Of a DNA stretch of 64,000 nucleotides, positions 17,337-58,415 are shown in pieces; position 1 is the stretch's first letter; the number at the start of each line of letters is the position of its first letter. The translations under genes were made by a program, and so were the position numbers. The stretch is taken from positions 29,016,001 through 29,080,000 of the forward strand of contig NC_043001.1 of assembly GCF_006345805.1 (NCBI RefSeq), read 5' to 3'. This stretch comes from Octopus sinensis. Lineage: Eukaryota. The notes below the pieces were generated by a model. It saw nothing but the letters and a program-made list of their open reading frames with translations, was not told the DNA's origin and searched no databases.

Positions 17337-17482
17337 CTAACTCAGCTGTTTGGAAATTGGTTGAACACTACTAAGTTAGGAAATATTTTAAATATAAACC
17401 TAACTGATATTAAAATGGTTGGAAGTCTGTTGTGTGGGATTGGCAAAGCTGATCTGGAAAAACTCAGTCCTCAAGTCGTCAT
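17337..17482 (+). CDS. Exon 4 (module 1a), phase 0-2
   Basis: tttcag|CTA...GTCAT|gtatgt; 146 nt; LTQLFGNWLNTTKLGNILNINLTDIKMVGSLLCGIGKADLEKLSPQVVM (GxxLCG motif as in stereocilin/otoancorin). Confidence 0.9.
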
Positions 17483-18024
17483 GTATGTCCTTATATTAGC
17501 GTTGTTTTTTAATTTAAAAAAAAATTTCTTTTTTTTTTCAATTTTTATCTTTTTGTTATTGATTGTAAAATTCCTTGAAAGGTCTACCTATTTCTTTACT
17601 ACCCACAAGGGGCTAAACACAGAGAGGACAAACAAGGACAGACAAACAGATTAAGTCGATTATATCGATCCCAGTGCATAACTGGTACTTATTTAATCGA
17701 CCCCAAAAGGATGAAAGGCAAAGTTGACCTTGGTGGAATTTGAACTCAGAATGTAGCGGCAGACGAAATACCGCTAAGCATTTCACCCGGCGTGCTAACA
17801 TTTCTGCCAGCTCGCTGCCTTCTTACCCCACAGCCATGCCTGCACCTGTTTGAAGGAAAAATTTTTTTCACTTATTTGCCTCAGCAGAGCAATGAAAGCA
17901 ATCCTAACCTCTACACTGAGAACAGTTTCATATTCACTTTGAAACAGTGTCTCTTGATACTTTTCCATTTTAAAACGTTCTATAGAATTTGTTTTTCATT
18001 CTAATTAAAATCTCATAACAAAAT

Positions 18025-18494
18025 CGAAATCGAAATCGAAATCAAATTCGATGACTGGCATCCGTGCTAGTGGACCATACGAGTGAGATCATTGCTGATG
18101 GCATGTTAAAAACACCATTCGAGCATGATCATTACCTGTGTTGCCTTACCGGCACTTGTGCTGGTGGCACGTGAAAAACATTCAGCGAGGTCGTTGCCAG
18201 TGCTGCTGGACTGGCTCCTGTGCAGGTGGCACATGAAAAGCACCATTTGAGCATGGCCAGTGTCAGTACCGCCTGACTGGCCCTCGTGCCGGTGGCACAT
18301 AAAAGCACCCACTACACTCTCAGAGTGGTTGGCGTTAGGAAGGGCATCAAGCAGTAGAAACTCTGCCAGATCAGATTGGAGTCTGGTGCAGCCATCTGGT
18401 TCGCCAGACCTCAGTCAAAATCGTCCAACCCATGCTAGCATGGAAAGCGAATGTTAAATGATGATGATGATGATGATGATGATGATGATGATGA
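18025..18494 (+). mobile_element. Repeat family C (RTE-3'-end/SINE-like, GGAAGGGCATCCAGCTGTAGAAA core, internal ~55-60-bp subrepeats, (GAT)n tail); many copies e.g. 16770-17220, 21845-22190, 31340-32010, 39535-39950, 48495-48960, 51058-51526, 52380-52647, 58470-59420
   Basis: Recurrent unit ending CATGGAAAGCGGACGTTAAACGATGATGAT; at 43.8-45 kb related sequence adjoins an RTE coding remnant. Confidence 0.8.
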
Positions 18495-18801
18495 AATTGA
18501 TAGTCAGGGAACCACTAAAGAAAGTTTGCCGACTCATTTTCAAACTATATTCTGAGAATCAAACTTTATACTGCAAGCTAATGAAATAACACTCACCAAT
18601 TACATTTCAATGCTGCAGTTTGCAGCTGGAAATTTTCTTGCCCAATGTTACAACATCCCATACTAAATATCAATCATGGGAAATGAACTATCAGTCTTTC
18701 AATCTTTAATTTGAGAGTTCATCACTCACTTAACTCAAACAACCTAAATCTCTTAAAACTGAAGTTTTCTTTATCTTGTTACAAAAACGTTTGTCTTTTA
18801 G

Positions 18802-18944
18802 GAATGCAATTGAAGACATTGCTAAGCTAGATTCCTGTAATATTTCTGAACAACGAATGCTGCTTGATAAAGTTATTGCTTCTATGCAAAAAATAGAACC
18901 ACAGTGGTCACCAGAACTTCTAATAGCACTTGGCCCTCTGATTC
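18802..18944 (+). CDS. Exon 5 (module 1b), phase 2-1
   Basis: ttttag|G AAT...ATTC|gtaagt; 143 nt; NAIEDIAKLDSCNISEQRMLLDKVIASMQKIEPQWSPELLIALGPLI. Confidence 0.9.
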
Positions 18945-55641: not shown

Positions 55642-56020
55642 ACTAGCAGTATCGCCCGGCGTTGCTCAGGTTTGTAAGGGAAATAACTATAAAGCATTTT
55701 TAGAGAGTTATAGCCAAAAAATAGCAAAAAAATGGAAAAAAAATGATGGTAAATTTTTTTGAGAGTTAAAAAGGTGGAGTTGCGTCCCCTAGACGGTCTG
55801 GGTTTGGGTTTCTGATTCTCGACCCCATGTCGAATTTATCGATTTTTTCAGAACTGGGGGAACTTTTAAAATTTTCGGTGCGTTAGTTTTGAATTATGAC
55901 ATTGGGCTATGTGTGTGTCAAGTTTCATCAGAATCGGTTGAAAGCCGTGGTCAGAGTGAGGGTACGAGAAAACAGACACACAGAAAAAAACGCACAGACA
56001 ACTGCCGTTTATATAGAGAG
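55642..56020 (+). mobile_element. DINE-1/Helentron-like non-autonomous element
   Basis: 5' ACTAGC...CCCGGCGTTGC, core AAGTTTCATCAGAATCGG, ACAGACAC tract and TTTATATAG end. Confidence 0.6.
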
Positions 56021-57148
56021 AGGATATACATACACATACACATATATATATATATATATATATATATATATATATATATATTATATTATATAAATATATA
56101 TATATATAGATGCCAGTGCCGTCTGACTAGCTCCCATGCTGGTGACATGTAAAAAGCACCATTTGAGCGTGGTTGTTGCCAGTGTTACCTGACTGGCTCT
56201 TGTGCTAGTGGCATATAAAAAGTACCATTAGATTGTGGTACTGCCTGACTGGCCCTGACTGGCCCTCTACACTCTTGGAGTGGTTGACATTAGGAAAGGC
56301 ATCCAGCTGCAGAAACCTTGCCAGATCAGATTGGAGCCTGGCGCAGCCTTCTGGCTTGCCAGTCCTCAGTCAAACCATCCAACCTATGCCAGCATGGAAA
56401 ATGGACGTTAAACAATGATGATGATGATGATGACGACGATGATGATGATGATGGTGGTAGTGGTGGTGGTGGTAATGGTGGTGGTAATGGTGGTGGTGGT
56501 GGTTGTGGTGGTGGTGGTGGTGGTGGTGGTGGTGATGGTGATGGTGATGATGATGAGGAGGAGGATATATGTTTATGTGTCTGTGTTTGCTCCCCAACCA
56601 TCGCTCGACAACTGATGTTGGTGTGTTTACATCCCCGTAACTTAGTGGTTCTATAAAAGAAAGAACAAGTCCTGGGGTTGATTTCTTCGACTAACAGGTG
56701 ATCCTCCAGCACTGCCACAGTCAAATGACTGAAACAAATAAAAGAATAAAAGAATTTATTTCTTCTTGTTATTATTTTGTATTTAACGACAGCGAGCTGG
56801 CAGAACCATTAACACACCAAGCAAAATGCTTGGCAGCATTTCTTGTCATTACGTTCTGAGTTCAAATTCTGCCAAGATCCGCTTTGCCTTTCATCCTTTC
56901 AGTATTGATAAAATAAGTACCAGTCAAGCACTGAGGTCGATGCAACCAATTTACCCACTTCACTGATATTGAAGGCCTTGTGCCAAAATTTGAAATTGTT
57001 ACTATTTTGTATCTTATGCAATTACTTTTTAGAAAACCTGTCGATAAATTTACAAAACAACAATTGTCACATTTAAATAATGTGTTTGAAGAATGATTCT
57101 TATGAATAATTTATTCATTTATTATTATTTTGTATCTTATGCTTCTAG

Positions 57149-57288
57149 AAAAGCTGTTGAAAGATTTGTAACCGGTGAACCATGTTCCCTAGAAAAACAG
57201 ACAAGTTGGTTGAGTAGAAATTCCAATATAGTCAGTAGAGTGGTGAATAATTTAGCAGGCATTTTGAAAAACATGACCAATTTTGAAG
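57149..57288 (+). CDS. Exon 20 (module 6b), phase 2-1
   Basis: ttctag|A AAA...GAAG|gtaact; 140 nt; KAVERFVTGEPCSLEKQTSWLSRNSNIVSRVVNNLAGILKNMTNFE. Confidence 0.85.
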
Positions 57289-57996
57289 GTAACTATCAAA
57301 ATTACGTGAACCCTAGGTTATCAGGATTTTCTTTCACATTTTTTGTCTAAAACGCCTTTCTTTTCATTACCTAAACCCCTTTTCAAACTCTTTGTTTCCC
57401 TTTTATTCTCTGCCTTCCTGCTTCAGTCCCATCTTTCACTTTCTTTTATCTTTTATCATTTTCCATGCATGTATGTATGTATGTATGTATGTATGTATGT
57501 ATGTATGTATGTATGTATGTATCTCTCTCTCTCTCTATATATATATATATATAGAGAGAGAGAGAGAGAGAGAGTTAATCCAAACAAGAAAGCACAAAAA
57601 AAACACAACAGCATGAGGACGTGGAACAAATATAGTATTATTGGACACTCAGGAAAGAAGGAAAGAAGGAGGGTTTAACATTTCAAGCGGAGCTCTTGGT
57701 CAGAAACATAGGAGAAGGAAAGTTCCAGAGAAGGGAAGACAGAGGAAAATATATATGTATATTTATTTATATGTGTGTGTATGTGTGTGTGTATTAAATG
57801 TATATATACATTTAATATATAAAAAGATAAAAGATAAAAAAGATACTTAATTATCTAATTTAAAATTTACATTGGTAAAAGGTAATTAAACATAATCAAG
57901 CATTTGCATATTCTGATTAAATCTGATTCCATTTAAAAACATATCATGTAATACATTCTAATATATATATATATATTTATATACATATATTTTAAG

Positions 57997-58415
57997 GAAG
58001 AGATAAACCTGACATAGAAGATAAGCAGGATGGTGGTAGTGGCGATGATGATAAAAATGTGGGAGACACTGATGATAGTAAGGATACAACTGACAATAAG
58101 GATGATGGTAGTGGCGATGATAGTAAAAATGATACTAAAAGTGACAGTAAGGATGATAGCAGTGTTGATGACGGTAAAAATAATGGTAGTAATACTAATG
58201 TGGTTGAAGAAGAAAAAAGGGATAATAAAACAGAAGTCAAGGATGTTGGTGGTGATGATGGTATGCAAGGAGATCAACCGAAAAATGATGACAAAACAAA
58301 TGATGTAGGAGATGCTGATGACAAAACAAATGATGTAGATGCTGATGACAAACCCAATCCAATGATTTCTGGAGGTGGAAGCAGCAAAGAAAGACTTATT
58401 GTCAAAGCTGATTTT
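57997..58415 (+). CDS. Exon 21 (module 6c position), Asp-rich low-complexity domain, phase 1-0
   Basis: tttaag|GA AGA...TTT|gtaagt; 419 nt open (an in-frame alternative AG lies 6 nt downstream); GRDKPDIEDKQDGGSGDDD...DDGSGDD...DDKTNDV x2...SSKERLIVKADF. Confidence 0.8.

Follow-up and report, generated by a model that had tools for sequence, protein, structure and literature searches.

Tandem three-exon blocks in an octopus gene related to otoancorin, stereocilin and mesothelin: a probable footprint of old internal duplication

The DNA analysed here (the window) is a stretch of 64,000 nucleotides of Octopus sinensis contig NC_043001.1, positions 29,016,001 to 29,080,000. It carries an array of 18 exons that belongs to a gene model of 51 GT-AG exons in one open frame, coding for 2,406 residues. 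The gene starts ∼41 kb before the window, and its stop lies at about NC_043001.1 29112272. The predicted protein has an N-terminal hydrophobic stretch, two tandem units (A and B), each with a pro-domain, a furin-type site and a mesothelin-like part, and a hydrophobic C-terminal tail. As judged by hydropathy alone, residues 9-33 form a putative signal peptide (32 of 33 residues kept in Octopus bimaculoides), and small polar residues followed by the hydrophobic tail to the protein end form a putative GPI signal (19 of 21 kept). The furin-type sites, recognised by motif only, are RIKR at residues 610-613 and a run of Arg and Lys that ends near residue 2091, and both are conserved in O. bimaculoides. 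Units A and B comprise ∼700 residues each and are homologous over ∼630 columns (z 38, 23% identity).

The O. bimaculoides ortholog, LOC106874393 (P0001; 2,400 aa), is collinear with the model and ∼80% identical to it, and 45 of the 48 modelled exons were matched in P0001, at 56-100%. It is labelled 'uncharacterized protein', and a literature search found no paper on the gene. When the exons at 6682, 7b and 5b were searched against the O. sinensis genome, each matched only itself at significant E, which is weak evidence that the gene may be single-copy.

Table 1. Features of the gene within the window (position 1 is the first letter of the window).
Feature	Position	Strand	Remarks
Last exon of pro-domain A	3115..3280	+	ends in furin-type site RIKR; 47/55 residues identical in O. 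bimaculoides
First exon of mesothelin-like unit A	6032..6225	+	Cys pair spaced by 29 residues
Second exon of mesothelin-like unit A	6682..6837	+	W-S...L-G helix repeat; finds otoancorin and stereocilin proteins
Exon 1a	17337..17482	+	146 nt, phase 0-2, Cys
Exon 1b	18802..18944	+	143 nt, phase 2-1, Cys
Exon 1c	20816..20907	+	92 nt, phase 1-0; full-length cover by RNA-type contigs of runs X3 and X7
Exon 2a	22953..23074	+	122 nt; spliced to 1c in contig 17 of run X7
Exon 2b	24776..24921	+	146 nt; exact cover by contig 16 of run X3
Exon 2c	25703..25794	+	92 nt; O. bimaculoides protein match
Exon 3a	27686..27834	+	149 nt; O. bimaculoides protein match
Exon 3b	32068..32210	+	143 nt; O. bimaculoides protein match
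Exon 3c	34478..34563	+	86 nt; O. bimaculoides protein match
54-bp tandem repeat, five copies	37405..37677	+	spans the 4a acceptor
Exon 4a, shortest form	37667..37812	+	146 nt; aligns to O. bimaculoides protein without insertion
Exon 4b	40248..40384	+	137 nt; O. bimaculoides protein match
Exon 4c	41898..41968	+	71 nt; genomic prediction; missing from 7/7 O. bimaculoides models
Exon 5a	45514..45632	+	119 nt; genomic prediction; missing from 7/7 O. bimaculoides models
Exon 5b	48171..48316	+	146 nt; genomic prediction; missing from 7/7 O. bimaculoides models
Exon 5c	49173..49246	+	74 nt; O. bimaculoides protein match
Exon 6a	52856..53013	+	158 nt; O. bimaculoides protein match
Exon 6b	57149..57288	+	140 nt; O. 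bimaculoides protein match
Exon '6c'	57997..58415	+	419 nt, phase 1-0; acidic low-complexity sequence linking unit A to unit B
Linker exon	62413..62508	+	96 nt
First exon of pro-domain B	63664..63864	+	16 more exons follow to the stop

The sequence-only reading had described the array as six tandem modules of three exons (a, b and c) with the intron phases 0-2-1-0. All 18 exons are present at the lengths it gave, each flanked by AG and GT and open in frame, and the phase code is found in every triplet; with phase frequencies taken from the gene's other introns, the chance of five triplet-phase repeats is p ∼3e-9. The length of 146 nt is one of five possible lengths for exon 4a, which has five in-frame tandem acceptors (exon starts at 37448, 37502, 37556, 37610 and 37667). 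The 12 Cys motifs of the a and b exons all lie on the + strand, and the proposed Cys pair holds throughout, with two Cys per module, 25-30 residues apart, in seven modules. The module count itself had to be amended: the six a+b pairs stand, module 6 is an a+b pair plus a linker, and outside the window, ∼32 kb further on, lies a seventh a-b-c module with identical phases (NC_043001.1 29106505-29110437). Exon 6c encodes 140 residues rich in Asp, Lys, Gly, Ser and Asn; it was rejected as a sixth c exon, as it resembles none of the other c exons (z -1.5 to 1.2).

Homology among the modules, which the same reading assumed, proved to be real but remote. Pairwise identities are 12-28%, and the internal repeat is significant in profile-versus-shuffle tests: for six of the seven modules, an a+b profile of the other six beats all 500 shuffles, and the score of module 5 was reached by 6 of 500. 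Among c exons, 2 of 21 pairs (1c-2c and 2c-7c only) beat all 200 shuffles. Modules 1-3 align in register with modules 4-6 at z 12.3, against z 1.6 and 3.1 in off-register controls. No DNA similarity was found among the module exons. In a tree, branches amount to ∼1-2 changes per site between modules versus 0.05-0.33 between orthologues, the longest being that of module 5. By these sequence comparisons, the module duplications long predate the split of O. sinensis and O. bimaculoides.

Family membership was analysed with profiles, homologue searches and structures. P0001 matched the Pfam Stereocilin family (PF21058) at 54.7 bits, with a cut-off of 26.6. The matched stretch, residues 866-1026, includes module 1 and corresponds to 165 of the 397 model positions; no other Pfam family was matched. 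Mesothelin (PF06060) gave no match to P0001 at E 0.01, none of 30 single exons reached or came near a Pfam cut-off, and neither PF06060 nor PF21058 matched the O. sinensis genome in an exon-by-exon search, which is a weak test. A homologue search with one exon as query returned 20 proteins, of which 17 were looked up; the clusters of 11 bear the name otoancorin, OTOAN or stereocilin, two others are uncharacterised proteins (octopus and Nematostella), and three are unnamed. The ESM Atlas neighbours of exon 6032..6225 include Mesothelin, Stereocilin and Otoancorin clusters; those of exon 7b were small bacterial clusters only. A profile of 14 non-octopus homologues matched both mesothelin-like parts of the O. 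sinensis model, with 128 and 167 bits, and modules 2-6 matched its a-b-c part weakly (<4 bits). The a-exon Cys is present in 12 of these 14 homologues, and in all 12 a second Cys follows 23-33 residues on. The profile of an alignment made mostly of the non-octopus homologues (A4) found the mesothelin structures 7UED and 8CX3 (E 3e-15), a link that runs via the family profile and not via a single sequence; PDB searches with one exon, a b-exon profile, P0001 or P0003 found no mesothelin. Word-based protein searches with the exons at 6034 and 6682 and with the b-exon alignment gave no passing match among proteins of up to 2,000 residues, a range below the 2,400-residue ortholog. For a 705-residue stretch of P0001, the alignment was deep over the first 250 residues only. 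The a-b-c module corresponds to the C-terminal block conserved in the family, Cys pair included, and unit A carries five extra copies of it.

The array had been read as a combinatorial splicing cassette, in which skipping of many different 3n-exon runs would yield diverse rods and chimeric modules. This we consider very unlikely, although its premise of frame-safety is correct (all 51 contiguous 3n-exon skips stay in frame, against 0 of the 120 others) and one chimeric join is recorded in a related species. Phase repetition does not discriminate, because an internally duplicated exon block must repeat its phases to keep the frame; frame-safety is thus expected from duplication alone, and internal duplication is reported to favour phase-symmetric exons (PMC3632108). 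The phase pattern says little in favour of a new splicing code. RNA-type contig 17 of run X7 joins 1c to 2a, that is, module 1 to module 2. RNA contigs, which drop rare variants, were examined on 1c, 2a and 2b (3 of 18 exons, in four runs), with 15 of 125 joints and 24 of 1,562 loose ends listed; among the rows listed, no differing module combinations were seen. Exon 6c occurs in 16 runs guessed to be RNA, and none of the runs that contain it is recorded as RNA; one run with 6c, X1, has no listed piece on 1c, 2a or 2b, which was taken as missing cover and given no weight. In run X3, a contig of 1,377 nt extends 1,219 nt past 2b, and its end fits 6a with all exons and also 6c with 4c-5a-5b skipped. 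The splice sites are ordinary: the 18 exons score no differently from 28 other exons of the gene (donors 7.0 versus 7.2 of nine consensus positions, pyrimidine share 0.71 versus 0.74; p 0.56 and 0.35), and a search of 150-nt exon flanks for shared intronic selector elements returned only sequence resembling common dispersed and simple repeats. Within the array, 0 of 7 predicted O. bimaculoides models differ, though the models vary elsewhere. Mutual exclusion of neighbouring units is contradicted both by the 1c-2a joint and by the five successive modules in all seven models. Mesothelin-type solenoids are described as having one continuous core (PMC10035497); with modules so dissimilar, most chimeras would likely pack poorly. 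A narrower version, in which 4c-5a-5b alone is a regulated, optional cassette giving a five- or six-module rod while the rest of the array is constitutive, seems unlikely, less strongly so. Exons 4c, 5a and 5b are missing from all seven O. bimaculoides models, which join 4b to 5c; the chimeric a-b-c module foreseen for a step of 3n exons does occur there. The block is old and intact in O. sinensis: a recent duplication in that lineage was rejected, given the lack of DNA similarity and the longest branch, and neutral decay at an assumed distance of 0.10-0.15 changes per site leaves the block intact in 4-10% of trials. In addition, the 5a donor is the weakest of 46 scored (5 of 9 consensus positions). 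A cassette in use would often be annotated both ways, however, whereas no model contains the block, and a genomic deletion in the O. bimaculoides lineage or a gap in its assembly would give the same picture; the absence may reflect lineage loss, skipping or an assembly gap.

Diversifying selection had also been suggested as a possible source of the module divergence; it might have favoured different surface specificities, in the manner of immune or gamete-recognition proteins. The modules are indeed far from one another and from the family, and modules 1-6 evolve faster than module 7 (80% versus 96% identity between species) and somewhat faster than all other folded parts combined (80% versus 85%, p 0.03). 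Testes are a setting where fast evolution is common. A Botryllus otoancorin homologue is reported to be expressed there (PMC4523013). At the protein level, however, no sign of diversifying selection was detected: modules 1-6 change at the rate of the pro-domains (80% versus 82%, p=0.51), they show no excess of radical changes (27/115 versus 50/165, p 0.22), and the distance between units A and B matches that among the modules. Age suffices to account for the divergence; diversifying selection is improbable. Another reading takes units A and B as two adjacent paralogous genes wrongly joined, so that the array would end a secreted protein. Homology along the units is what tandem paralogues would show, but exon 6c contains no stop and ends in a phase-0 GT donor, unit A lacks a separate tail, unit B has no signal peptide in the model, and all seven O. 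bimaculoides models continue through the linker. We regard this reading as highly improbable.

We conclude that the 18 exons probably form the middle of a single large gene of the otoancorin/stereocilin/mesothelin superfamily, that their phases likely reflect ancient copying, within the gene, of a frame-symmetric block of three exons, and that splicing probably follows the exon order for the most part; the product is predicted to be a long helical rod pinned by disulfides. The repeated helical rod proposed from the window, which in this family would be a right-handed ARM/HEAT-like solenoid, is a likely shape by family analogy, as is its disulfide pairing, given the solved mesothelin solenoid with the same disulfide spacing. 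In the history that we propose, i) the whole pro-domain plus mesothelin-like unit would have doubled, ii) the a-b-c block would then have been copied within unit A, probably last by doubling modules 1-3 into 4-6, iii) the copies would have diverged, with module 7, near the membrane, hardly changing, and iv) out-of-register steps of 3n exons may still alter copy number, to judge from the O. bimaculoides models. By analogy with its relatives, the gene would encode a secreted, GPI-anchored precursor. Furin cleavage at both sites would retain a mesothelin-like piece of ∼295 residues on the membrane, and a middle piece of ∼1,480 residues, containing the six modules, would be set free. The protein may link glycoprotein matrix to the cell surface, the extra modules acting as a spacer or added binding surface, and it is a candidate cell-to-matrix tether in cephalopod hair-cell organs. 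More speculatively, and with doubt prevailing, out-of-register three-exon steps could tune the length of such a tether, with its doubled unit and added modules: 4c-5a-5b would be switched by splicing or lineage and the 4a acceptors would add 18-residue steps, setting cell-matrix reach in, e.g., statocyst, skin or gonad.

The otoancorin/stereocilin/mesothelin family is relevant to hearing and cancer. The internal repeats of mesothelin have been reported as undetectable from sequence (PMC2628672); here, exon phases expose a 120-residue family block that can be copied as a unit. The models of the two species, which differ by exactly one out-of-register block, offer a natural test of whether chimeric blocks stack in this solenoid.

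The best sequence relatives outside octopus are otoancorin (OTOA) and otoancorin-like proteins (P0003, P0008, P0009, P0010, P0013, P0019 and P0020) from sharks, rays, birds, crinoids and hemichordates, with ∼20-25% identity and E down to 1e-25. Otoancorin shares the W-S...L-G helix repeats and the a-b-c block with its Cys pair, and has been described as a GPI-anchored matrix tether (PMC2628672, PMC7886070, PMC4281357) in a family whose function is to bind extracellular glycoproteins at an apical cell surface (PMC2628672, PMC7886070). The octopus protein is about twice as long (2,400 versus about 1,100-1,200 residues) and differs in its doubled pro-domain unit, five extra, strongly diverged a-b-c copies and the acidic linker; no comparable module array was seen in a BLAST comparison with 19 non-octopus homologues. 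Mesothelin (MSLN; 7UED, 8CX3, 8FSL, 7U9J) has a comparable order of pro-domain, furin site and mature part of ∼300 residues, followed by a GPI tail (putative in octopus), but it is one unit, whereas the octopus protein has two, the first with six blocks. According to PMC10035497, the mature part holds two Cys pairs with spacings near those of octopus: C302 to C442 is 140 residues (138 and 141 in octopus), and the disulfide C442-C468 spans 26 (25-30 in the octopus modules). Stereocilin (STRC) accounts for the Pfam match, yet the overall octopus layout is nearer to mesothelin. In Dscam-type arrays, tandemly duplicated exons keep the frame whichever is used, and the alternatives are mutually exclusive. 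Unlike these, the octopus gene splices module 1 to module 2, and its repeat unit is a block of three exons.

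A gene model was assembled by splice-site scans of the window, extended by 130 kb on its upstream side and 70 kb on its downstream side, with the Octopus bimaculoides ortholog serving later as a guide. It consists of 51 exons, all GT-AG, in a single frame, and encodes 2,406 residues. Two tandem units, A and B, each with a pro-domain, a furin-type site and a mesothelin-like part, align over 627 columns with 23% identity (z 38). The initial model version had 48 exons, 45 of which have a counterpart in the same order in O. bimaculoides, at 56-100% identity; certainty is lowest for the 5′ exons. 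An exon about 21 kb upstream of the window (28995116-28995415 of the contig, G000:C5) encodes an Arg/Asn/Ser-rich repeat that is expanded in O. bimaculoides (131 residues longer), and the isoform models of that species differ there. Open frames near G000:C5 28891800 (stretch L021, about 5780-6560) and an ORF about 36 kb upstream of the window are candidate fragments of LINE-type reverse transcriptase.

Order of features along the predicted protein
Feature	Residues	Context
Hydrophobic N-terminus		followed by a short N-terminal part and pro-domain A
Furin-type site RIKR	610-613	end of pro-domain A; next come two exons holding a Cys pair
Modules 1-6	731-1433	followed by an acidic linker and pro-domain B
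Second furin-type site	about 2087-2091	after pro-domain B; next come two exons holding a Cys pair
Module 7	2207 on	exon phases same as in modules 1-6
Last conserved exon		after module 7
Terminal hydrophobic tail		end of protein

The sequence-only reading had described modules 1-6 as three-exon blocks (a, b, c) with the phase code 0-2-1-0. All 12 motifs were found on the + strand, and a scan for AG...GT pairs at the claimed lengths yielded an open-frame exon at each a, b and c length, with a good polypyrimidine tract at all 18 exons. The phase code holds for every triplet. Phases 0, 1 and 2 account for 20, 4 and 5 of the 29 introns elsewhere in the gene; at these frequencies five triplet repeats would arise with p about 3e-9, and the repetition is not chance. 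Frame safety was likewise confirmed, since any of the 51 possible runs of 3n adjacent exons can be skipped without loss of frame, which holds for none of the 120 other skips. Pairwise module identity is 12-28%, and homology is borne out by leave-one-out a+b profiles, which scored above all 500 shuffles for six of the seven modules; the score of module 5 was reached by 6/500 shuffles. Exon 6c does not belong with the c exons: its product is 140 residues of acidic, low-complexity sequence (38 Asp), and sequence comparison with the remaining c exons ruled it out as a homologue. At 4a, a 54-bp unit comprising the intron end and exon start is present in five copies, 94% alike (window 37405-37677). 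This yields five acceptors at spacings of 54, 54, 54 and 57 nt; each keeps the frame and introduces no stop, and splicing to one of the upstream acceptors would lengthen the protein by 19-73 residues. No insert of this kind is present in the O. bimaculoides protein. The repeat may have arisen recently as a VNTR, may be polymorphic, or may reflect misassembly.

A duplication within coding sequence would persist only if both ends of the block share one phase; its inner phases would then recur. Consistent with this, internal duplication favours phase-symmetric exons, as reported for single exons of the human genome (PMC3632108). Because a viable coding duplication must repeat the phases of its block, the phase code is expected whether or not splicing is alternative. 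No DNA similarity was found among the module exons. In an a+b tree, modules of one octopus species group with their orthologues in the other (starred support), module 7 adjoins the outside family, and modules 3 and 6 group weakly (81/87); module 5 has the longest branch, and the tree program warns of meeting long branches. The a-exon lengths show a higher-order period of three modules (146/122/149, then 146/119/158; window 17337-57288). Since they recur in threes and modules 1-3 match modules 4-6 better in register (z 12.3) than when shifted (z 1.6 and 3.1), sequence comparison suggests that the final event in the array was a doubling of three modules.

Exon 6c was present in 20 sequencing runs, of which 16 are RNA by guess and none on record. 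Contigs of four runs from four studies were compared with window 19800-25220 (exons 1c, 2a and 2b). Run X7 contains a 2,989-nt contig in which 1c adjoins 2a and the 2,045-nt intron is gone. Ahead of 1c this contig carries 2,707 nt, where the model has 2,479 coding nt; a complete 5′ portion preceded by a short untranslated leader would fit. In X8, we infer the same joint from the place of a 1c variant inside a contig with 2a. X3 contigs cover 1c and 2b to the exon ends, and X1 had no piece on the three exons among the matches listed. No skipping was seen in this region in the four runs among the matches listed (15 of 125 joints, 24 of 1,562 loose ends and 32 of ~37,900 pieces), in tables dominated by repeats and from contigs, which drop rare forms. 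These contigs differ from the assembly at window 20857 (His to Asp; X3, X7 and X8) and 24846 (Lys to Glu; one X7 contig), as alleles or species differences. The introns contain very abundant dispersed repeats, at window 20946-21100, 21845-22190 and 23240-23620 (these three with thousands of RNA-type contigs on them) and in 66-bp arrays (e.g. 18093-18309, 31612-31811 and 51132-51361); they are presumably common octopus SINE-like elements.

Donor and acceptor strength of the 18 array exons was no different from that of 28 of the gene's other exons, and the 150-nt exon flanks had no common sequence except repeat-like ones. Seven O. bimaculoides models, six of them isoform models and the seventh a UniRef entry, vary solely in the N-terminal Arg-rich repeat or the start, and never within the array; they are predictions from one cluster, and far shorter models could sit in others. 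With 1c joined to 2a, ordinary splice sites and no array variation in these models, the proposed combinatorial splicing cassette is unsupported and rated improbable.

Exactly 4c, 5a and 5b (112 residues) are missing from all seven models, with 4b joined to 5c. Three exons are thus out, out of register, and the resulting chimeric module keeps its Cys pair, as the sequence-only reading had envisaged for 3n skips; a deletion or gap would give the same join. The block is old and intact in the O. sinensis assembly, and in trials of neutral decay it stayed intact in 4-10% (assuming 0.10-0.15 substitutions per site, indels uncounted). Skipping would account for the join, but it is rated below a lineage deletion or assembly gap because none of the seven models includes the block.

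Diversifying selection, suggested earlier from module divergence, is not favoured by the sequence comparison. Identity to O. bimaculoides is 80% (473/588) for modules 1-6, 86% and 78% for the pro-domains, and 96% (123/128) for module 7. Conservation of the modules resembles that of the pro-domains (p 0.51; p 0.03 against all other folded parts), and radical changes are not enriched (27/115 versus 50/165, p 0.22). The divergence reads as relaxed constraint on distal copies.

A HMMER search of 1.84 billion representatives with the exon at 6682 retrieved 20 proteins, of which 17 were looked up. The top match was the ortholog, LOC106874393 (P0001; 'uncharacterized', 2,400 residues). Eleven of the 17 clusters bear the name otoancorin, OTOAN or stereocilin (crinoid, hemichordates, sharks, rays, gar, bichir, zebrafish, piranha and hummingbird). 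Another hemichordate cluster has otoancorin-like members, and a further cluster, that of an uncharacterised Nematostella protein, includes a member called 'Stereocilin LRR domain-containing'; the remaining four are the octopus protein and three unnamed. The unnamed match P0014, with YadA repeats, looks unrelated. P0001 scored above the Pfam Stereocilin cut-off and did not match Pfam Mesothelin. A profile of 14 non-octopus homologues, trimmed to the region matching unit B, was run on the first model and gave 128 bits at residues 610-844 and 167 bits at 2034-2330; modules 2-6 stayed below 4 bits. In the 14-homologue alignment the a-b-c block is the C-terminal block of the family; 12 of the 14 have the a-exon Cys, each with a second Cys 23-33 residues on. 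In the ESM Atlas, one exon pointed to the same superfamily and a second gave no lead. The profile of alignment A4, mostly of non-octopus homologues, reached mesothelin chains (E 3e-15 to 4e-13), mainly through its non-octopus rows.

Family members are described as GPI-anchored helical solenoids tethering glycoprotein matrix to apical cell surfaces (PMC2628672, PMC7886070 and PMC4281357), and a Botryllus homologue as testis-expressed (PMC4523013). Two predicted furin cuts in the octopus precursor would leave, among the products, an anchor of mesothelin size, which is conserved, and a long central fragment bearing the six modules, most of which have several N-glycosylation motifs; by analogy, the array may form a helical rod. 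No description of the gene was found in the mostly open-access literature searched, where the otoancorin papers retrieved concern Botryllus and starfish. The array is a real feature, and a new architecture within a known family. Mesothelin folds as a right-handed solenoid whose disulfides, C302-C326 and C442-C468, lie after a furin site at E296 (PMC10035497). The distance from the first Cys of the first pair to the a-exon Cys is 138 residues in unit A and 141 in unit B, resembling the 140 of mesothelin, and the a-b Cys pair is therefore probably the counterpart of C442-C468.
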